The position numbers were made by a program, and so were the translations under genes. Of a stretch of DNA of 11,304 bases, positions 1 through 11,304 are shown one piece after another. How positions within the stretch are numbered: position 1 is the stretch's first letter; each line of letters begins with the position of its first letter. The stretch lies in the NCBI RefSeq assembly GCF_057098645.1, contig NZ_JBXSPU010000004.1. The stretch is one strand, 5' to 3'. Origin of the DNA: a plasmid. A model generated the notes under the pieces. It had not been told where the DNA came from. It worked only from the letters and a program-made list of their open reading frames with translations, and ran no database searches.

Positions 1-5
1 GATTC

Positions 6-536: not shown

Positions 537-756
537 GTTCTCCCTTCTCCGTTACTGGTGTTTACGTCCGGCTGTGCGTCACCTGGTCATCACGCTAGGT
601 GACGTCACTGAAAATTATCACACAAGCCCCGTCGTGTGTGGGCTGCGCGACATTAACACCCCGTGACGCTTATTTTTTGCTGAATATGTGCGCGATTTTC
701 TGTCTGCGTTGTGTGCAGTTGTCGTCATAAACATGAACGTTCCGCCGGTTCCTGAT

Positions 757-791
757 GTGCGTCACTTTGACGTTTTGACAAAGTGACGCAC
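757..791. repeat. Perfect 13-bp inverted repeat with 9-bp spacer (operator-like palindrome)
   Basis: gtgcgtcactttg-acgttttga-caaagtgacgcac read directly; contains TTGACG and TTGACA hexamers. Related GTGACG palindromes at 575-582 and 599-608 (gtgacgtcac). Confidence 0.45.
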
Positions 792-1158
792 GGGAGGTGC
801 TTGCGCAAACCCGCGAATAACGGCGTTTACCGCGTGATTTTTTTACATCTGACAACGTGACCCGGCGTGATGGCCAGTTCTGGCCAGAGACGTTCGCGGG
901 GTGTCGGGGCGCAGCCATGACCGGGTGGCGTTTGTCCGGTCGTGTGTGCGCGGTCCGACAAATGCACATCCTGTCCCGTCCCGTTTTTCGCTCGGTTTTT
1001 ATTGATTACCGGACAGACGAACCCGGATTGCCATATTGCGAAAATCACGTTAAAACGATTACGAGCGTGCAGTTGGGCTGATATATCAACAGTCATGCCA
1101 ATATGTATTAACCCGACAGGCCGCTCTTTTTAATTCCAATAAAAATATAAATACGAGT

Positions 1159-1353
1159 ATGAATCAGGACAAAGCAATTTATTTAGAAAATAAATATTTT
1201 TCACCCGCAAACGAAGCTGTCAGACTGGAGCGTGAAGGCGATTACATTGGAGCATGGAAAAAATGGAATGATGCGCTTCATTATGCCAAAGGAGAAAATA
1301 TAGGTTGGTGTATAGCCAGAGCTGAATATTGTAAAAAGACAGGCCGGTTTTAA
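1159..1353 (+). CDS. Hypothetical small protein (64 aa), possibly a helical TPR-like fold
   Basis: ORF with AT-rich upstream region and A/T-rich codon usage unlike the flanking GC-rich DNA; only a weak Shine-Dalgarno. No family recognised. Confidence 0.35.
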   Translation: MNQDKAIYLENKYFSPANEAVRLEREGDYIGAWKKWNDALHYAKGENIGWCIARAEYCKKTGRF

Positions 1354-1367
1354 TTCTGGCGGGGTTT

Positions 1368-1386
1368 CAAAGGGGCGCCCCCTTTG
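1368..1386. other. GC-rich stem-loop just after the 64-aa ORF stop
   Basis: caaagggg-cgc-cccctttg, an 8-bp perfect stem with 3-nt loop; no following T-tract, so not a canonical intrinsic terminator. Confidence 0.3.
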
Positions 1387-1489
1387 GCACCTCGACGTAT
1401 CAAAATGCACCAGCATTTTGTATACAGTCGGTCATGTGCCTCCAGGATTTACCATCAAAAACGCCCCTGTAGTTAATCCTGAATCAAGG

Positions 1490-1584
1490 TATAACTAAGA
1501 TATAATTAGCGTATAACTAAGGCATAACTAAAGTATAACTAACTTGGTGTGCATATAATTAACATATAACTAATGTATAACTAA
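1490..1584 (+). repeat. Array of about eight direct repeats of TATAACTAA phased at 11 bp (iteron-like)
   Basis: Copies start at 1490, 1501 (tataattag), 1512, 1523 (cataactaa), 1534, 1554 (tataattaa), 1565 and 1576; one degenerate slot near 1545. Confidence 0.7.
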
Positions 1585-1770
1585 CGGTTCACCAACGGAT
1601 CGCATGTAGTAGACGCTACATAAAAAATCCTGAAATGGAGGATTCGTCATAAAGAGATTCTTTTTTTTAGCGTTCTGATGCAGAACAGGGCAAACACCGC
1701 AAAAATGATGAAAAACTGATTAACCATACTGTCTGTATTCTGAATGAATTACGAAGCATAGCGATAAATT

Positions 1771-1797
1771 AAAAAATCCCCCTGGATTACAGGGGGA
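1771..1797 (-). terminator. Intrinsic-terminator-like hairpin plus U-tract (minus strand)
   Basis: Plus strand aaaaaa-tccccctg-gatta-caggggga: 8-bp perfect stem; on the minus strand the hairpin is followed by TTTTTT. Confidence 0.4.
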
Positions 1798-1904
1798 AGC
1801 TATCAGAGTTTGAGTAATGAGAAATATTATTTTGGAGAGAGCATCACAAATGCGCTCTTTTCCAATCTGCCGTAACCATCGGCAAAAGACAATCAGGACA
1901 GGCG

Positions 1905-1931
1905 AAAAAATCCCCCTATATGGCAAGGGGG
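1905..1931 (-). terminator. Intrinsic-terminator-like hairpin plus U-tract (minus strand)
   Basis: Plus strand aaaaaa-t-ccccct-atatggca-aggggg: 6-bp GC stem; minus-strand T6 follows. Confidence 0.4.
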
Positions 1932-2028
1932 TGTCAATGAGGACATGGCAATTGTGAGTTTTGTGTGTGTTTTATGTGTTGCAGTTTGCAACGTCAGAAA
2001 TTTGCCGTAGTTCGTCATGAGAGACAAC

Positions 2029-2070
2029 AAAAAAATCCCCCGTGACTGGTGGAGGCCAGGGCAAGGGGGG
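2029..2070 (-). terminator. Intrinsic-terminator-like imperfect hairpin plus U-tract (minus strand)
   Basis: Plus strand aaaaaaa-tcccccgtgactgg...ccagggcaagggggg; CCCCC/GGGGG and CTGG/CCAG arms; minus-strand T7 follows. Confidence 0.3.
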
Positions 2071-2279
2071 TAGCAAATGCCTGAATAATTTTCGTAGTTT
2101 TGATATACCCATCGTTGCAACCGCAACGGGATGAATTTGCCGCAGTTGTGCGCGAAAAACAATCCTGATTCCGGGACAGGATGTGTAATCGTATAACCGC
2201 GCACGCACGGCTATGCGATTACCACCTGGTCAGGGCTTTGCCCCGACACCCTCGACACCGTTCCCGCGATACGATAGAA

Positions 2280-2483
2280 GGGGTTCTAAGCCGGAAACCC
2301 AGAAAATTCCGTCACCAAAGCTAGTAATCGACAGATTTGCATGACGTTGAATAGGTGACGGGTTATGTGACGATATTTGGTGTCGAAATCGTTGTTTCAG
2401 TGACAGTCACTCAATCGATCGTTTGTGTGACACTCCCGTAAAAACTTGTCGCAGAAAAATCCAGGTTTCCGGCCGGGAACCCC
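2280..2483. mobile_element. 204-bp miniature element with Tn3-family-like terminal inverted repeats and 5-bp target duplication (TIME-like, non-autonomous)
   Basis: Left end GGGGTTCTAAGCCGGAAACCCAGAAAATTCCG; right end read inward GGGGTTCCCGGCCGGAAACCTGGATTTTTCTGCG. Both start GGGGTTC like the transposon IRs at 7516 and 11303. Flanked by identical TAGAA at 2275-2279 and 2484-2488. No ORF inside. Confidence 0.6.
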
Positions 2484-2571
2484 TAGAACATCAGGGCGCG
2501 TTTCCGGGTAAACGCATGTTAATGACCGGGAATTCATTGATCAGGGACCGGAGACGCGCTACAAAACTCCT

Positions 2572-2713
2572 GCGCGTTTCTGGCATCAACTGACCATGGG
2601 GATGGTTTGGCAGTAGCAGCAAGCGCCAGAAACGCGCTCAAAACGCCTCTGGCGGCAAAACCATTGCCCGATGCAAAAAAGTGCGTTACAAAGCCTCTGA
2701 GCGCGTTTCTGGC
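2572..2713. repeat. Nested inverted copies of GCGCGTTTCTGGC forming long-range hairpins, followed by a T-tract
   Basis: gcgcgtttctggc at 2572-2584 and 2701-2713; its reverse complement at 2624-2636. The pair 2624-2639 / 2698-2713 is a perfect 16-bp inverted repeat. T6 at 2716-2721. The 15-mer CTGAGCGCGTTTCTG recurs at 3466-3480 inside cer. Confidence 0.5.
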
Positions 2714-3097
2714 GTCTTTTTTGTTGCTGTGTCGCTATACTCGTTGTCAGATTCGCGCTCAATCATCACTGATTAATCTGCGCTTATCCTTCGACTGATC
2801 ACGCTGGTATTTTTTGACAACCGGTTCCCATGAAAACGCCAGACGGGAACCGTCATCCGCACCCTCTGACATGCTGGGGATTAAAAATCCCTGTGCCGCA
2901 CAGCCGGCGTTGCATAAAATTCCGCTCTGCGATGAGTATTGTTTAATCAAAAATCCCCTCGTTTTCTCCAGAAAAACGCGAGTCTGTTCTCATGCCCCGG
3001 ATGCCCACACCCCACGCAAAACCAACTTTTTTCTGATTTGCTTTTTAAATCATGTTGTTATGGTTTGAAAAATATATTTTCTTATTCAGATTTATAC

Positions 3098-3270
3098 AAA
3101 AGCGAGTCGTCGGCGACTACTGGATGATTCGGCAACGAGTCGTCGGTGATTTATCGATGACTCAACACACTGTCTCCCTGGTGTTCAGAAAAAGCGAGTC
3201 GCCAGAGAGTCGCGAGGAAAAATACTGGATGACTCGCTGATGGCTCCCGGGGTGAATCGCTCACGACTCG
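3098..3270. repeat. Cluster of GAGTCG / CGACTC-containing direct and inverted repeats
   Basis: (G/A)CGAGTCGTCGG at 3101-3113 and 3134-3146; ACTGGATGA(T/C)TCG at 3118-3130 and 3224-3236; GAGTCGCC and GAGTCGCG at 3196-3213; CGACTCG at 3264-3270. Confidence 0.5.
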
Positions 3271-3299
3271 TCTGTAACTACTGTCTGATTTCTTCTCAT

Positions 3300-3516
3300 C
3301 AGGGCTGAAAACGTCCGAAAATGCGCCTTATGGGAATCAGGCGCGCCCAAACCGATCGCCATTCAGTTTCATGCATAGTCATGCAGTGCCATGAAAACAA
3401 TCCTGACGTATTTTTCCGGTTTACCCGGGGGGAAAACATCTCTTTTTGCGGTTTTTGCGTCAGAATCGCGCTGAGCGCGTTTCTGCGGTGCGTACAATTA
3501 AGGGATTATGGTAAAT
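3300..3516 (+). other. cer-type multimer resolution site (accessory sequences plus XerC/XerD core)
   Basis: Core at 3487-3516 reads GGTGCGTACAA-TTAAGGGA-TTATGGTAAAT, which is the ColE1 cer XerC arm, 8-bp central region and XerD arm as I recall them. About 190 bp of upstream accessory sequence includes an ARG-box-like segment near 3360-3385. Left boundary approximate. Confidence 0.8.
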
Positions 3517-3524
3517 GTCTCCCT

Positions 3525-4656: not shown

Positions 4657-4761
4657 CAGTTTTATATCTCATCCTGATTTGCTCCGGTGTTCTGTTTCGA
4701 CGTTCTCAATGTCTGCCTCCTTGTAGTGTGATCTTTATTGCAAAAATGAAAATCCATGTTC

Positions 4762-4825
4762 TTGACATGGGCAATGCTGAGTAGTAGGTTTTCACTGTAC
4801 ATAAAACCAGTGGTTATATGTACAG
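4762..4825 (+). promoter_or_regulatory. SOS-regulated colicin promoter with two overlapping LexA boxes
   Basis: -35 TTGACA at 4762-4767; overlapping LexA boxes CTGTACATAAAACCAG (4795-4810) and its partner tggttatatgtacag (4811-4825), each CTG-N10-CAG, in the classic colicin arrangement. Confidence 0.8.
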
Positions 4826-4873
4826 TATATTGTTTTTAATTTATTGTTTTAATTATCAAAGAGGAATTTCTTT

Positions 4874-6346
4874 ATGGATAAAGTCACTGATAATTCTCCA
4901 GATGTGGAGAGCACAGAATCTACTGAGGGGTCATTCCCAACCGTTGGGGTTGATACTGGCGATACGATTACAGCGACGCTTGCAACTGGAACTGAAAATG
5001 TTGGTGGAGGCGGTGGAGCATTTGGTGGGGCCAGTGAAAGTTCTGCTGCGATACATGCAACCGCTAAATGGTCTACCGCGCAGTTGAAAAAACATCAGGC
5101 TGAACAGGCTGCCCGTGCTGCTGCGGCTGAGGCAGCATTGGCAAAAGCGAAATCTCAGCGTGATGCCCTGACTCAACGTCTCAAAGATATTGTTAATGAC
5201 GCTTTACGTGCTAATGCCGCCCGTAGTCCATCAGTAACTGACCTTGCTCATGCCAATAATATGGCAATGCAGGCAGAGGCTGAGCGTTTGCGCCTTGCGA
5301 AGGCAGAGCAAAAAGCCCGTGAAGAAGCTGAAGCAGCAGAAAAAGCGCTCCGGGAAGCAGAACGCCAACGTGATGAGATTGCCCGCCAACAGGCTGAAAC
5401 CGAGCATTTGTTAGCTATGGCTGAGGCTGCTGAGGCTGAAAAAAATCGACAGGATTCTCTTGATGAAGAGCATCGGGCTGTGGAAGTGGCGGAGAAGAAT
5501 CTGGCTGAGGCTAAAGCTGAACTGGCGAAGGCTGAAAGCGATGTACAGAGTAAGCAAGCGATTGTTTCCAGAGTTGCAGGGGAGCTTGAAAACGCTCAAA
5601 AAAGTGTTGATGTGAAGGTTACCGGATTTCCTGGATGGCGTGATGTTCAGAAAAAACTAGAGAGACAATTGCAGGATAAGAAGAATGAATATTCGTCAGT
5701 GACAAATGCTCTTAATTCTGCTGTTAGCATTAGAGATGCTAAAAAAACAGAAGTTCAGAATGCTGAGACAAAATTAAAAGAAGCTCAGGATGCGCTTGAG
5801 AAGAGTCAGGTAAAAGATTCTGTTGATACTATGGTTGGGTTTTATCAATATATAACCGAACAATATGGAGAAAAATACGCAAGAATTGCTCAGGATTTAG
5901 CGGAAAAGTCTAAAGGAAAGAAAATTAAAGGTGTTGATGAAGCTTTAGCTGCATTTGAACAGTATAAAAATGTACTGGATAAGAAATTCAGTAAGGTTGA
6001 TAGGGATGCTATTTTTAATTCTTTAGAGTCTGTTAATTATGATGAGTTATCTAAGAATTTAACGAAGATATCAAAGTCGCTTAAAATCACTAGTCGAGTA
6101 TCTTTTCTATATGATGTTGGTTCTGATTTTAAAAATGCAATAGAAACTGGTAACTGGCGTCCTTTATTTGTCACGCTGGAGAAAAGTGCGGTAGATGTAG
6201 GTGTTGCAAAAATTGTGGCATTAATGTTTAGTTTTATTGTCGGCGTGCCTCTTGGTTTCTGGGGGATTGCTATTATCACAGGTATTGTTTCTTCTTACAT
6301 AGGGGATGATGAGTTGAACAAGCTTAATGAATTGCTAGGTATTTAA
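4874..6346 (+). CDS. cta: Pore-forming colicin of the E1 family, colicin 10-like (490 aa)
   Basis: Gly-rich N-terminal region, then [20 protein letters not shown]...[13 protein letters not shown]...LAHANN...ERLRLAKAE matching colicin E1 as I recall it. C-terminal channel domain ends [21 protein letters not shown]...LGI (E1: GIWGIAIVTGILCSYI...EVLGI). The length and the TonB-box-like DTITATL at residues 30-36 fit colicin 10; the symbol is tentative. Confidence 0.9.
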
Positions 6347-6633
6347 TTTCTCTTTAGAGAGTAATATATGAAACTTGGCAATCCTACTGGGATTGCCATT
6401 AATAAATAAAACAATGCAGATAACTTGCATAAATACCAGGGCTCTTTTTTAAATTTTGTATTTTCTTTGATATATCTAGATATGGTTAATTTAGAGTATG
6501 GATATAGCAATACATGTATTGACGATATAAAGACAAATAACAAAGGAGTGTTATCATGGTCGTTAAATATTAAAATAAGAATCCAGGGTATAAGTGATTC
6601 AGGTAAATTATGTAGGTAGTATTTTAAATGCAT
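6343..6633 (-). CDS. cti: Colicin immunity protein, E1-type integral membrane protein (96 aa)
   Basis: Convergent with the colicin gene and overlapping its stop. [10 protein letters not shown]...[22 protein letters not shown]...[14 protein letters not shown] parallels the colicin E1 Imm protein (MSLRYYIKNI...[22 protein letters not shown]...LVLAIPFGLLGLFI). Confidence 0.85.
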
Positions 6634-6848: not shown

Positions 6849-6957
6849 GTAAACGAAAAAACCGCCTGGGGAGGCGGTTTAGTCAAAGGTTAAGTCAGTT
6901 GGGGAACAGCTTAACCGGGTAACTGGCTTCAGCAGAGCGCAGATACCAAAAACTTGT
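6849..6957 (-). ncRNA. RNA I antisense copy-number regulator
   Basis: Antisense to the 5' ~110 nt of RNA II; its 5' end corresponds to the complement of cagataccaaaaacttgt (pBR322 RNA I begins ACAGTATTTGGTATCTG); three-stem-loop region. Ends approximate. Confidence 0.65.
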
Positions 6958-7478
6958 CCTTCTAGTGTAGTCAAAATCAGGCTGATACTTCAAGAACTCT
7001 GTTACTAACTTATAAATCTCGCTCTGCTAACCCGGTTACCAATGGCTGCTGCCAGTGGCGTTAAGTCGTGTCCTTTCCGGGTTGGACCCAAGAGAACAGT
7101 TACCGGAGAAGGCGCAGCAGTCGGGCTGAACGGGGGGTTCCTGCATACAGCCCGGCCCGGAGCGAACTGCCTAAGTCGCCCCGAGATACCAGAAGACGTG
7201 AGCTATGAGAAAGCGCCACGTGTCCCGCAAGGGAGAAAGGCGGAAAAGGTATCCGGCAATCGATATGGCGGGAACGTGGGGGCGCAGGAGGGAGCGATTC
7301 ACCGGAAACGGTGATGATCTTTAAGCCACGTCGGGTTTCGCCACCGCTGGCGGATTTCATGGTTGAGTCGGAAGACTCCCACAGATGCACCTAAAAAGTG
7401 TCTGTTTTGTGAAGTCCGTCAGGGGGGCGGAGCCTATGGAAAAAGCGCCTCCGGCGCGGCCTTTCGGGGTTTTCGTTT
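6849..7478 (+). ncRNA. RNA II primer precursor through the replication origin of a ColE1-type replicon
   Basis: Collinear with pBR322 RNA II/ori as recalled (ggtaactggcttcagcagagcgcagatacc..., gctatgagaaagcgccacg..., gtcaggggggcggagcctatggaaaaa..., ctcacatgttctttcc), but with many substitutions and an extra segment near 7330-7410. Ends approximate. Confidence 0.7.
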
Positions 7479-7515
7479 CTTGCTCACATGTTCTTTCCGG
7501 CGTTATCCCCTGATT

Positions 7516-7553
7516 GGGGTTCCGTGGGAATTTCTGCGATAACACCCGCTAAG
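7516..7553 (+). repeat. Left 38-bp terminal inverted repeat (IRL)
   Basis: GGGGTTCCGTGGGAATTTCTGCGATAACACCCGCTAAG. Confidence 0.85.
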
Positions 7554-7699
7554 CGATTCCTCCCTGACGGAAATCACTTGTTTTCCGTCAGGTCCTGCAG
7601 TTGAAGAAAATTGAATCCATAAATCTGTGATTTTTTGCGTGACAAACCCTGTCGGAATGAGAAACTGTACGGAAACTTCAATTTTAAGGTTTGTCGTAC
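7554..7699 (+). promoter_or_regulatory. res site (resolvase binding subsites) and tnpR promoter region
   Basis: 30-bp palindrome cctgacggaaa-tcacttgt-tttccgtcagg at 7563-7592, plus further TGTCGGAA / TGTACGGAA / TGTCGTACA half-sites at 7648-7700, between IRL and tnpR. Confidence 0.55.
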
Positions 7700-8323
7700 A
7701 TGTTGATTGGTTATATGCGGGTATCAAGCAATGATGAACGTCAGTCAGTTTCTTTGCAGCGTGATGCGTTGATTGCTGCTGGAGTGGATCCCCGGCATTT
7801 ACATCAGGATCATGCTTCAGGTGCTCGTGATAATCGCCCGGGACTTAAGTCCTGTCTCGCTGAACTTCGCGAAGGTGATGTACTGATAGTCTGGAAACTG
7901 GATCGACTTGGTCGTTCACTCTCACATTTGCTCCGAATTATTGAAGACCTGAAAATTCGTGGTATTGCTTTCCGATCATTGACTGAATCTATTGATACAA
8001 CAACGCCACACGGCTCGTTCCTCTTTAACCTTTTTGGCACGCTCGCGGAGTACGAAAGAACACTTATCACAGAACGCGTTAATGCTGGTCTGGCTGCTGC
8101 TCTCCGGCGGGGGAGAAAAGGCGGAAGGCCACCGGCGATAGATGCTGAAAAGGTTGATCAAATCCTCGCAGCTCTGGAAGGAGGTGCCAGTAAAGCGTCA
8201 GTATGTCGCGCATTCAGTGTGCCACGCTCAACGCTCACCGATACTCTACGACGAATTGGCTGGGCCGGACCTGGGGGGCGTAATCTGACAACGGATCAGA
8301 GCAATGTCATTTCTCGACTCTAA
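7700..8323 (+). CDS. tnpR: Serine recombinase (resolvase), Hin/Gin invertase-like
   Basis: MLIGYMRVSSNDERQ...RPGLK...GDVLIVWKLDRLGRS...GIAFRSLTESIDTTTP...GRKGGRPPA parallels Gin (MLIGYVRVSTNDQ...GDTLVVWKLDRLGRSM...GINFRSLTDSIDTSSP...GRIGGRPPK) as recalled. I place the start at ATG 7700 (AAGG about 10 nt upstream); the ORF track starts at an upstream TTG, 7691. Confidence 0.85.
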   Translation: MLIGYMRVSSNDERQSVSLQRDALIAAGVDPRHLHQDHASGARDNRPGLKSCLAELREGDVLIVWKLDRLGRSLSHLLRIIEDLKIRGIAFRSLTESIDTTTPHGSFLFNLFGTLAEYERTLITERVNAGLAAALRRGRKGGRPPAIDAEKVDQILAALEGGASKASVCRAFSVPRSTLTDTLRRIGWAGPGGRNLTTDQSNVISRL

Positions 8324-11270
8324 ATCGTACGATACGCTTTTTGGATTACCTGAACTTTATGAGGATGCACTTCCCCGGTTTTCGCTCTCCTGCGAGGATA
8401 TTGCATTCGCCAGAACTCATCGTCGATCTCATAACCGTCTGGGTTTTGCCATTCAGCTTGCACTTGTCCGTGATCTCGGTCGTACACTGCGTGCAGGAGA
8501 GATTCCCCCGGAGGCTGTTATCACCGTTGTTGCGGAACAACTGGATATTGACCCTGCTGTTTTTACACTTTACGCACAACGTGAGGAAACCCGCCGGGAA
8601 CATGCCCGCGAAATAGTTTCGGCTTTGGAGCTTCGTTCCGTCCGGAGTAGCGATTACAGAATGCTCATTATCGCGGCTACACGCGAAGCAGCAACCACCG
8701 AAAAAGGACTGCCGATCACCAGAGCAGTTATCAATAAGCTGAAGGACCAGAAGTTACTTGCCCCTGCTCCGGCACAACTCATCCGTCTGGCAATGGCGGG
8801 CCGGGCGGCTGCCCGTCGCCTTTCTTATCGGGAACTCATCAGGGATCTGAAACCTTCATCCATTAGCGCTCTCGAGCAGTTGCTTACCGAACGAGTCGGA
8901 GAAAAGAGCATTTTAGGCTGGATAGCTGAAGCGCCGGAAGGCGTGAAACTCAAGAATCTTAAGGGGTTAATTGCCAGGCTGGAGGTATTACGAACAGCGG
9001 CAATCTCCGATGAGCAACGTAAACGGATTCATGTAAACCGTTACGGTATTATTGCCCGGGATTCTCGCGTTTTACATGCGCGTGAAATACAACGAATGGC
9101 ATCCGAACGCTGTCATGCCACGCTGGTAGCCTTTGTTATTGAAAAGCAGGCAGCAATTACAGATCTGGCAATTGATATGTTCTGCAAATTGATTGGCAGC
9201 ACGAGGCGCAGAGCAGAGATAAGCCAGAAAGAGCGTCGTCTGAAAGCCGCTGAAGTACTTGAAGTCGTAGCTCAGGATCATATTAAGTTGGGACGGGCTC
9301 TCCTGGCAGCACGTGACGGTAATACTGATATTGAATCTGTAATAACAGCATCACTCGGCTGGGAAGGTTTGATTGCCAGTATGGAGGCTGCAGCTTCGGT
9401 GGCATCTTCCCATCACTGTTCTGAACTGGATGAACTTATCGGACGACAAAAATCATTACGTAAGCTTGGACGACTCATTTTCAGCGCTTTTTCTTTCAGA
9501 GCTTTTCGCCCGGATGATAGCGTTTTGTTGGCGATTGGGTATTTGCAGGCGTTCTATCATGGCCGAAAATTACCCAAACAAATTCCGCTCGATTTTATGT
9601 CCCATAAATGGCGACGTCGTGTCATCCATGGAGAAAATACCGATCTGCAGGCGTGGGAAGTCGCCGTATTCGTTCATTTGCGGGAACGCCTGAAAACAGG
9701 TGACATATGGGTTGATGGTAGTCGGGCCTGGCGTAGTTTTGAGGACTACCTTCTTCCTCACCATGTTTTCGGGCAGATGCGGGCAGAATCCCGGCTGGGA
9801 CTTGCCATTCCGGACAACTTTGCTGAATGGCGGGCTGAGCGAACCACCACACTCAACGCAAAACTGAAAGCGCTGGCAAAAGCTGCTTCGGAGAATGCCA
9901 TACCCGATGCAGAACTTTCCAGCAGAGGGTTGTCTGTGTCTCCGATTCGCGAAGAAGAGAGCGACAAAATTAAGGCTCTCAGCCGTAAACTCTACATGCT
10001 GGTACCACGCATCAGAATTACCAGTTTGCTGGCAGAAGTTCATAGCTGGACCAGTTTTCTTGATTGTTTCACCCATTATCGCACCGGGGAACAGGCGGAA
10101 GATGAAGCTGCACTTATGGCTGCGATCCTTGCCGATGCGACGAATGCGGGAGCAGAACGGATGGCGCAGAGTTCCCGGGGTGTCACCATTCACCAGATGA
10201 TGGTAATGATGGATCGTCATTTACGCACTGAAACCTATGCGTCTGCCACATCAGTTCTGGTCGATGCGCAACAGGAACATCCTTTTGCTGCTATATGGGG
10301 GGATGGGCATGTGTCATCCTCGGACGGGCAGTTTTTTCCTGCGGGTGGACGAGGAGAAGCCAGCCTCGAATATAACGCCAAATACGGCAAACGACCTGGC
10401 GCGTCGATTTATGGTTTTTTATCGAACCGTTTTGCATCCTTTTTTTCCAGAATGATTCAGGCCTCTGAAAGCGAGGCTCCCTACGTACTTGACGGCTTAC
10501 TTCATAACGAAAGTTCTGTGGTAATTCATGAGCATGCCACCGATACAGCCGGTGCGACTGAAACAACATTTTCAATGTTTCACTCTTTTGGTTACAGACT
10601 CATACCCCGTATTCGCAACCTCGGCAGTCGCAGGTTGTACGTTATTTCCCCCTCAGAGGAATATAAACCACTTGATGCCCTGATCGCCGGAAAGGCCAAA
10701 ATGGAAGTAATAGAACAGCACTGGGATGAAGTTCTGCGGCTTAAGGCCTCGATCGGCGCTGGTCTGGTACCACCATCGGTAATACTGAAAAAGCTGGCAG
10801 CATCTCCGAGACAAAACAGGCTCAATCTGGCCCTGCGTGAAATGGGACGTATTGAACGCTCAATTTTTATCTGTGACTGGTTGCTTGACACTCGGTTACG
10901 TCGCAGATCACACGCAATCCTCAACAAAGGCGAAAGCCGCCATGCACTTGCCCGCGCTATTTTTCTTCACCAACTGGGCGAATTCCGGAACAGGGCTGCC
11001 GAGACAATGGCTCACAGGGCATCGGGCCTCAACCTTGTTGTTAATGCAATAATTCTGTGGAACACGGTCTATCTCAGTCGGGCTGTTGATTACATTCGCA
11101 GCCAGGGGATCATTATACCGGAAGAGCTCTTGTCCAGTGTATCACCACTACCATGGGGTCATATCTCGCTCACTGGAGATTACCTGTGGAACGAAATTGA
11201 CCATCCCCTTGAACGATACAGGCCACTTCGTACTAATCGCTTCAATCCAAAGAACTTCACTTTTCCTTAG
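8304..11270 (+). CDS. tnpA: Tn3-family DDE transposase (988 aa)
   Basis: HNRLGFAIQLALVRDLG, NKGESRHALARAIFLHQLGEFRNR and NAIILWNTVYLSRAVDYIRSQG mirror Tn3 TnpA motifs (HNRLGIALQIGCVRFLG, NRGESRHAVARAICHGQKGEIRKR, NAVVLWNTIYMQAALDHLRAQG). Overlaps the tnpR 3' end by 20 nt. Confidence 0.93.
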   Translation: MSFLDSKSYDTLFGLPELYEDALPRFSLSCEDIAFARTHRRSHNRLGFAIQLALVRDLGRTLRAGEIPPEAVITVVAEQLDIDPAVFTLYAQREETRREHAREIVSALELRSVRSSDYRMLIIAATREAATTEKGLPITRAVINKLKDQKLLAPAPAQLIRLAMAGRAAARRLSYRELIRDLKPSSISALEQLLTERVGEKSILGWIAEAPEGVKLKNLKGLIARLEVLRTAAISDEQRKRIHVNRYGIIARDSRVLHAREIQRMASERCHATLVAFVIEKQAAITDLAIDMFCKLIGSTRRRAEISQKERRLKAAEVLEVVAQDHIKLGRALLAARDGNTDIESVITASLGWEGLIASMEAAASVASSHHCSELDELIGRQKSLRKLGRLIFSAFSFRAFRPDDSVLLAIGYLQAFYHGRKLPKQIPLDFMSHKWRRRVIHGENTDLQAWEVAVFVHLRERLKTGDIWVDGSRAWRSFEDYLLPHHVFGQMRAESRLGLAIPDNFAEWRAERTTTLNAKLKALAKAASENAIPDAELSSRGLSVSPIREEESDKIKALSRKLYMLVPRIRITSLLAEVHSWTSFLDCFTHYRTGEQAEDEAALMAAILADATNAGAERMAQSSRGVTIHQMMVMMDRHLRTETYASATSVLVDAQQEHPFAAIWGDGHVSSSDGQFFPAGGRGEASLEYNAKYGKRPGASIYGFLSNRFASFFSRMIQASESEAPYVLDGLLHNESSVVIHEHATDTAGATETTFSMFHSFGYRLIPRIRNLGSRRLYVISPSEEYKPLDALIAGKAKMEVIEQHWDEVLRLKASIGAGLVPPSVILKKLAASPRQNRLNLALREMGRIERSIFICDWLLDTRLRRRSHAILNKGESRHALARAIFLHQLGEFRNRAAETMAHRASGLNLVVNAIILWNTVYLSRAVDYIRSQGIIIPEELLSSVSPLPWGHISLTGDYLWNEIDHPLERYRPLRTNRFNPKNFTFP

Positions 11271-11303
11271 CGTGTGTTATCGCAGAAATGCCCACGGAAC
11301 CCC
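11266..11303 (-). repeat. Right 38-bp terminal inverted repeat (IRR)
   Basis: Reverse complement reads GGGGTTCCGTGGGCATTTCTGCGATAACACACGCTAAG; differs from IRL at positions 14 and 31. Confidence 0.85.
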
Positions 11304-11304
11304 T

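Follow-up and report, generated by a model that had tools for sequence, protein, structure and literature searches.

How does a ColE1-type plasmid keep replicating when a transposon separates its origin from the DnaA box? The question is raised by an 11,304-nucleotide plasmid sequence (NCBI RefSeq assembly GCF_057098645.1, contig NZ_JBXSPU010000004.1), which was analysed over its whole length and is called the window below. We conclude, with high confidence, that a cryptic Tn3-family transposon moved into a 7,511-bp ColE1-type colicin plasmid at the pentanucleotide TGATT, giving an 11,304-bp circle that still replicates. An original prediction, made from the letters of the window, had proposed such an insertion between the ColE1 origin and its DnaA box, and had read a TGATT duplication split across the two window ends as the mark of a closed circle.

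A transposon between the ColE1-type origin and its DnaA box

We observed that positions 7516–11303 are occupied by an element of 3,788 bp, which contains a resolvase gene (tnpR) and a transposase gene (tnpA) only and has no passenger genes. The parts of the element and the flanking copies of the target-site duplication (TSD) are as follows.

7511–7515: left copy of the 5-bp TSD, TGATT; single copy in the empty-site relatives
7516–7553, + strand: left 38-bp terminal inverted repeat (IRL), GGGGTTCCGTGGGAATTTCTGCGATAACACCCGCTAAG; from a repeat finder and direct alignment
7554–7699, + strand: presumed res region, the 146-bp spacer from IRL to tnpR; function as res predicted
7700–8323, + strand: tnpR, a serine recombinase (resolvase) of 207 amino acids (aa); from Pfam domains, PDB matches and the annotation of sister copies
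8304–11270, + strand: tnpA, a Tn3-family DDE transposase of 988 aa; from NCBIfam and PDB matches
11266–11303, − strand: right 38-bp terminal inverted repeat (IRR); from a repeat finder and direct alignment
11304: first base (T) of the right copy of TGATT, which continues at window positions 1–4
1–4: last four bases (GATT) of the right copy of TGATT

The element has what is expected of the Tn3 family, namely inverted repeats of ~38 bp starting with GGGG, a 5-bp AT-rich duplication and a DDE transposase of ~1,000 aa. In a direct alignment IRL and IRR were identical at 36 of 38 positions, and each begins with GGGG. TnpA scored 916.9 bits on the NCBIfam Tn3-transposase equivalog NF033527 (cut-off 500) and 510 bits against the TnpA of Tn4430 (PDB 7qd4/7qd8); PF13700 and PF01526 are recorded on the TnpA of a sequence-identical copy of the transposon in a related contig, L017 (ENA ERZ1311469). 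TnpR carries the Pfam domains Resolvase PF00239 (7.5e-43) and HTH_7 (3.5e-5), and its counterpart in the sister copies is annotated as recombinase family protein WP_000904945.1. The two genes are co-directional with each other, with RNA II transcription and with leading-strand synthesis. The spacer 7554–7699 is presumed to be res, as it is placed like the res of Tn21/Tn501-type elements. It holds a perfect palindrome with 11-bp arms at 7563–7592, and a motif scan found CGGAA-containing repeats at 7568, 7583, 7653 and 7670.

The transposon sits in a ColE1-type replicon. The parts of this replicon are listed below in the order in which they follow one another once the transposon is removed.

6851–7444, + strand: RNA II primer region up to the inferred RNA/DNA switch; colinear with ColE1 (NC_001371) 591–1197, start inferred from the position of RNAI
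6853–6954, − strand: RNAI, the antisense copy-number regulator; Rfam RF00106, 74.3 bits against a gathering score of 47, full-length model match
6–14, − strand: DnaA box TTATCCACA, the sole zero-mismatch match to TTATNCACA in the window; same relative place in ColE1
~15–130, + strand: region homologous to the primosome-assembly (n′/ssiA) region, on the displaced strand; predicted, with high identity to ColE1 1281–1400
~190–260, + strand: bom/oriT-homologous region, near-identical to ColE1 ~1450–1520
342–536, − strand: rop, a 64-aa Rop-like translation; a Rop family protein lies at the equivalent place in NZ_CP062882.1

The switch was placed at ~7440–7444 by homology to the GGAAAAACGCC motif of ColE1/pBR322 (ggaaaaa at 7438–7444), so that its coordinates are not experimental ones. 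Similarly, the stretch 15–130 is predicted to be ssiA, in keeping with a general description of this site in the literature (PMC3167613), and 190–260 is presumably bom, its sequence being recognisable as that of ColE1/pBR322.

For the comparison with ColE1, the element and one copy of TGATT were removed in silico and the remaining backbone was aligned to NC_001371. The two were colinear from a point before the RNA II start as far as rop, including the conserved GGAGCCTATGGAAAAA switch motif, with 77% identity over 1,274 columns. ColE1 positions 1258–1280 (TATCCCCTGATTCTGTGGATAAC) were identical to the emptied backbone across the insertion point itself, and hence the backbone resumes at window position 1 in the order that had been proposed. 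RNAI, RNA II, the switch, the DnaA box, the ssiA-homologous region, bom and rop are therefore arranged as in the ColE1/pBR322 (pMB1) origin. The window plasmid differs from ColE1 in having no mob genes, in the region 537–3464, which has no ColE1 counterpart, and in having the transposon between the switch on one side and the DnaA box, ssiA and bom on the other. The annotation of the sister plasmid NZ_CP062882.1 includes no functional Rep gene, and the sole "replication initiation protein" entry is a frameshifted 142-nt pseudogene within the RNA II region.

Both junctions lie exactly at the tips of the inverted repeats. The left junction (7515/7516) reads ...GCGTTATCCCCTGATT/GGGGTTCCGTGGG... 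(also given as GCGTTATCCCCTGATT/GGGGTTCCGTGGGAATTTCTGCGATAAC), and the right junction (11303/11304) reads ...CCCACGGAACCCC/T (also given as GTTATCGCAGAAATGCCCACGGAACCCC/T); the window then restarts with GATTCTGTGGATAAC. The insertion lies ~74 bp beyond the inferred switch, and the DnaA box starts one base past the duplicated TGATT. The target 20-mer is 65% AT, the highest value locally within the GC-rich ori-distal region. As a result, the DnaA box and the primosome-assembly region are displaced by 3,793 bp (the transposon plus the duplicated TGATT), and bom with them, as the original prediction had estimated at about 3.8 kb; the DnaA box is now ~3.87 kb from the switch. In all sister molecules the DnaA box and the primosome-assembly region are adjacent to the switch.

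The undivided target site was found in every related plasmid compared, where CCCCTGATTCTGTGGATAAC is uninterrupted. Window position 1 maps to 7459 and window position 7515 to 7462 of NZ_CP062882.1 (L001), so that both copies of TGATT map to one uninterrupted site there. Five further, independent relatives (L016–L020) were recovered as contigs encoding the intact 490-aa colicin of the window. All five contain the 40-mer of the empty site and none has either junction; the empty site of L001 and of each of L016–L020 holds a single TGATT. The match between the two window ends is thus beyond chance, which is also borne out by the length arithmetic given below.

Replication past the insertion

The arrival of the element and the path of replication over it can be outlined from this anatomy. 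We infer that the transposon would have entered by replicative transposition through a cointegrate, followed by resolution by TnpR at res, and would have landed at TGATT in the most AT-rich 20-mer of the ori-distal region. After priming, native DNA would be copied for the first ~74 nt past the switch; DNA polymerase I (Pol I) would then copy IRL, the presumed res and tnpR, and synthesis would not arrive at the ssiA region and the DnaA box before ~3.9 kb. Helicase loading would depend on recognition of the D-loop or fork structure by PriA, and not on displaced ssiA or the DnaA box. The plasmid would still replicate because all the defining parts of a ColE1-type start of replication, among them the RNA II promoter and folding domain, RNAI, the switch and the first ~70 bp after it, are intact upstream of the insertion.

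Structure-specific loading by PriA is the likely route on the published accounts of ColE1 replication. In the standard model, RNase H cuts RNA II, Pol I extends it, the displaced strand bears n′/ssiA, and PriA directs the loading of DnaB (PMC3167613). The primosome-assembly site is described there in general terms, as lying on the displaced strand of the ColE1-type origin; the ColE1 primosome is described as essentially the one that is recruited to R- or D-loops in repair, and Pol I tracts reach ~1.3 kb in vivo (PMC3167613). ColE1-like plasmids offer a fork-like structure to restart proteins (PMC5778457), and the DnaA box is regarded as a potential alternative loading site only (PMC3640518).

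We scanned for sigma-70 promoters around the junction and found no matches. Inside the transposon there is no perfect DnaA box that could act as a substitute; a one-mismatch site is present only deep in tnpA, at 8570. It is established from deletions in ColE1/pBR322, and from the many everyday cloning vectors that end at the switch or shortly beyond it, that the ori-distal region need not adjoin the origin or be present at all. The classic ColE1 deletion studies are reportedly those of Oka et al. in 1979 and van der Ende et al. in 1983.

It could be argued that the insertion is tolerated through a surrogate signal brought in by the transposon, with the 7563–7592 hairpin acting as a primosome-assembly site, or else that the plasmid pays a cost such as a lower copy number. 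The palindrome indeed lies 48 nt into the transposon, on the strand displaced by Pol I extension, and its hairpin is a strong one (z = −5.2). Roles have been given to ssiA and the DnaA box in vitro (as cited in PMC3640518), and no other surveyed ColE1-type plasmid has the element in the first 860 bp past the switch, which could reflect counter-selection. However, the simpler reading of the palindrome is as a resolvase-binding subsite of res, and taken together the first 145 nt of the transposon show no unusual structure (z = −1.64). To load on D-loops and forks, PriA needs no particular sequence (PMC5778457, PMC3167613). Moreover, the backbone has 0 mismatches to that of L017, an isomer that has the transposon at another place; the insertion beside the origin came with no change in cis, and none was needed to compensate for it. 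A surrogate signal in the transposon is therefore possible and unnecessary, and we regard this explanation, with its variant of a replication cost, as unlikely.

Our preferred reading, in which the plasmid replicates from its intact primer region with loading directed by structure, has several points against it. A literature search on the dispensability of the primosome-assembly (pas) and DnaA-box regions turned up general descriptions only, and their dispensability is taken here as background. That the plasmid "replicates normally" is inferred from its existence alone, and the res assignment is presumed from position only. Finally, the junction is absent from the collections searched: a 240-bp junction probe had no record in PLSDB covering ≥80% of it, and an exact 35-mer gave 0 matches in the JGI metagenomes, which leaves persistence or spread of this isomer unsupported.

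The original prediction had called the insertion a natural test of how much of the ori-distal region must adjoin a ColE1-type origin. The proposal is valid in form, while its significance was overstated, as the question has long been considered settled. The sequence by itself tests viability only, and not copy number. The position of the DnaA box and primosome region directly after the switch is an accessory feature of the family and not a defining one.

The closed circle and its sister plasmids

The window reads as one complete circle when it is set beside its sisters. NZ_CP062882.1, from E. coli O157:H16 of pig faeces in Quebec, was deposited as an 11,304-bp circle with the same backbone and the element in the colicin gene, after the equivalent of window position 5314, with the TSD AAAAA; it differs from the window by 4 backbone and 2 transposon mismatches. 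L017 has a 55-nt terminal repeat, by which it too can be closed to a circle of 11,304 bp. Its transposon is identical to that of the window, and its 7,511-bp backbone is the one without mismatches; the element lies there in the opposite orientation after window position 4725, with the TSD TTGTA, 148 bp upstream of the colicin start. The backbone without a transposon is represented by L020 (GCA_043241705.1), a transposon-free 7,511-bp circle with 1 mismatch, and the backbone rebuilt from the window by joining 7515 to 5 is likewise 7,511 bp. As 7,511 + 5 + 3,788 = 11,304, the size of two independently assembled sisters, the window corresponds to one complete circle. This conclusion, which the original prediction had put forward as most likely, is well supported by the sequence comparisons, short of read-level proof. 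Neither PLSDB nor the set of complete E. coli RefSeq genomes contained the window molecule itself, though close relatives are present there.

Could the window be instead a unit cut out of a cointegrate, a multimer or a longer contig, with the T at 11304 fitting TGATT by luck? A single base of the right duplication is all that lies inside the window end, the same backbone occurs embedded in the 17.5-kb contig L016, and ColE1 cointegrates formed through Tn3-family transposases have been described (PMC8683028). Yet the window has exactly the length of the backbone, the TSD and the transposon together, and it shares this length with two independent sister isomers, one deposited as circular and the other closing on its terminal repeat. 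For the ends of a fragment to match exactly one unit length would be an unlikely coincidence, and we consider this explanation highly improbable. It is equally hard to credit that the placement is an assembly artefact, with the element misthreaded from other replicons: related strains carry it on six or more replicons, three positions are reported on an identical backbone, and the assembly of L017 is imperfect, with 101 nt of unrelated sequence at one end, yet a misjoin at a repeat does not yield a precise duplication of 5 bp that the empty site contains only once, with both junctions exactly at the inverted-repeat tips.

Two of the related contigs have features of their own. In L016 (GCA_026612075.1 JACYKX010000064.1) the backbone lies beside F-like plasmid genes (DUF1380, YubE, a methylase and an IS110-family transposase), and the sequence of window 2407–2484 is found at both ends of the plasmid-derived part; this contig may represent a cointegrate or have arisen by recombination at the bom-like/inverted-repeat region. 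Positions 1–101 of L017 match nothing else in the plasmid on either strand and are probably an assembly artefact at the circular junction of a metagenome contig.

Insertion positions, spread of the element and the remaining backbone

We compared the insertion with those of the same element in ten other ColE1-type plasmids, where it lies 864 to 7,333 bp downstream of the switch; in none of the ten does it fall in the interval from the switch to the DnaA box. Counting in the opposite direction around the circle places three of these insertions (L011–L013) 681–718 bp upstream of the switch, that is, ~125–165 bp upstream of the RNA II start. Thus, 4 of the 11 insertions lie within ~165 bp of the edges of the replicon, one at +74 and three 125–165 bp upstream of the RNA II start.

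In L012 (NZ_CP047382.1, pig, China) and L013 (NZ_CP148355.1, human, Korea) the transposon occupies the same TATATA site, in the colicin lysis gene. The duplications at this site are 6 bp (TATATA) and 5 bp (ATATA), which suggests independent insertions at one hotspot ~125 bp upstream of the RNA II start. The insertion of a third plasmid, L011 (NZ_CP157108.1), lies at a similar distance from this start. Its flank, GGTTATCCTCATATA, was considered as a second insertion at the same site as in the window, and this was rejected as it maps 718 bp upstream of the switch.

These positions can be viewed in the light of a 2026 preprint on Tn4430, according to which TnpA binds fork-like DNA and joins the transposon ends just downstream of a nascent 3′-OH (10.64898/2026.05.30.728999). 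Tn4430 transposition is argued there to require replication of the target, and insertions are reported to cluster at hotspots beside a unidirectional origin when intermediates build up at it (10.64898/2026.05.30.728999). On a ColE1-type plasmid, a slow Pol I-extended D-loop awaits helicase loading in the first few hundred bases after the switch, and the +74 insertion could therefore mark that intermediate. The three insertions ahead of the RNA II start lie where the unidirectional fork completes its course, and they would fit fork-targeting too. Against this stand the small number of insertions (n = 11), the post hoc nature of the observation and AT-richness as a confounder. That the site is a footprint of such Tn3-family "replication hijacking", rather than an AT-rich accident, is hence doubtful.

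The element itself is widespread. Copies that are 99.9–100% identical over the full 3,788 bp were found in dozens of E. coli and Salmonella plasmids (for example NZ_CP047380.1 and NZ_CP148340–45), annotated generically as "Tn3 family transposase" (WP_000008826.1) and "recombinase family protein". The complete element is present in 33 of 5,426 complete E. coli genomes, in up to 9 places per genome. The pig E. coli O157:H16 strain Res13-Lact-PEA12-26 (NZ_CP062876–82) has complete or truncated copies on the chromosome and at least five plasmids, making at least six replicons. Similar multi-replicon bursts were observed in several other pig and human strains, and to judge from these copies the element seems to be active at present. 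The 11 other copies examined all lie between AT-rich duplications (AAAAA, ATATA, TTTGA, TTATA, TTGTA, TTTTA, ATGTT, TATAT and TTTTT), of which 10 are clean 5-bp duplications and that of L012 is better read as the 6-bp TATATA. The copy in the window is thus like the others in sequence, inverted repeats and 5-bp AT-rich duplications, and differs in insertion site only.

We found no published name for the element in searches with the inverted-repeat sequence, with both WP accessions and with "3788 bp" plus Tn3; the cluster names are generic. Identity with Tn5403 of Klebsiella was considered. Tn5403 is cryptic, ~3.7 kb long, with 38-bp inverted repeats, tnpA and tnpR only, no resistance genes and 5-bp duplications (PMC5142620, PMC7319535), and hence has the same minimal layout. 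This identity was rejected, as the element has no nucleotide match to the Tn5403 copy in pPMK1-C, and its TnpA and TnpR are ~35% and 32% identical to those of Tn5403 at the protein level. In the same plasmid, the resolvase of a Tn5393c copy is 50% identical to TnpR. TnpR is much closer to structures of the DNA invertase Gin (4m6f/3uj3, 171–173 bits) than to the gamma-delta/Tn3 resolvases (89–95 bits), and its C terminus runs ~25 residues past the aligned part of the Gin, gamma-delta and Tn3 proteins. TnpA is homologous over its whole length to that of Tn4430 from Bacillus thuringiensis (residues 11–977). Tn4430 resolves by a tyrosine recombinase (TnpI/irs), whereas the window element carries a serine recombinase. 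The target choice of Tn4430 is thought to be structural or AT-driven and not sequence-specific (bioRxiv 10.64898/2026.05.30.728999). In ColE1-like plasmids generally, Tn3-family transposases belong to the accessory genes seen most often (PMC8683028).

The remaining backbone showed several other features. Compared with ColE1, the 3′ domain of RNA II has ~40 nt extra (window ~7352–7398), 45–90 nt upstream of the switch, and RNA II is therefore ~590 nt here against ~555 nt; the extra segment is common to all relatives of the window backbone. Two arrays of 11-bp repeats (consensus ~TATAACTAAGG; 5.2 and 3.1 copies) lie at 1468–1600, just downstream of a small ANR-family regulator gene (~1159–1353) and inside the 2.2-kb stretch 1354–3524, in which the sister record annotates no gene and to which nothing in ColE1 corresponds. 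These arrays look like iterons or a protein-binding array. The bom/oriT-like core (GGGTCATGGCTGCGCCCCGACACCC) is present in three copies, at 224–256, 899–931 (inverted) and 2228–2251, on this plasmid without mob genes, and an 80-nt inverted repeat (899–978 with 2172–2251) is 75% complementary. The repeated cores and the inverted repeat suggest that the backbone was pieced together out of parts of several ColE1-like plasmids.

Three hairpin-containing repeats (AAAAAATCCCCC...GGGGG) were found at 1771–1796, 1905–1930 and 2030–2055, spaced by ~130 bp. In pSCU-106-3 (NZ_CP053237.1, 7116–10894) a 3,779-bp variant of the transposon has inserted into the loop of the hairpin that corresponds to the second of these, with the TSD ATATA. 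The colicin gene (490 aa, 4874–6346) looks mosaic; the sister record labels an N-terminal fragment of it colicin 10 (cta), and the immunity gene (6343–6633) is of the colicin K type (cki). Upstream of the colicin gene, a near-perfect palindrome with CTGT...ACAG arms at 4794–4826 resembles the LexA boxes that colicin promoters usually carry.

Neither the element nor the replicon nor the tolerance of the insertion is new, and the observation therefore belongs to already known biology. Among the data searched the insertion position is a one-off, and the type of event is routine. What the window shows, and was correctly read to show, is a common cryptic transposon that moves among small colicin plasmids, mostly those of pig and human E. 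coli. The identical backbone exists free of the transposon and with the element at three sites, beside the origin, within the colicin gene (which is thereby disrupted) and upstream of the colicin gene. The three isomers and their parent form a natural isogenic set for comparisons of copy number, stability, colicin expression and the adjacency of the DnaA box and ssiA, and a large survey of Tn3-family insertions relative to ColE1 origins could test the fork-targeting model on existing sequence data.

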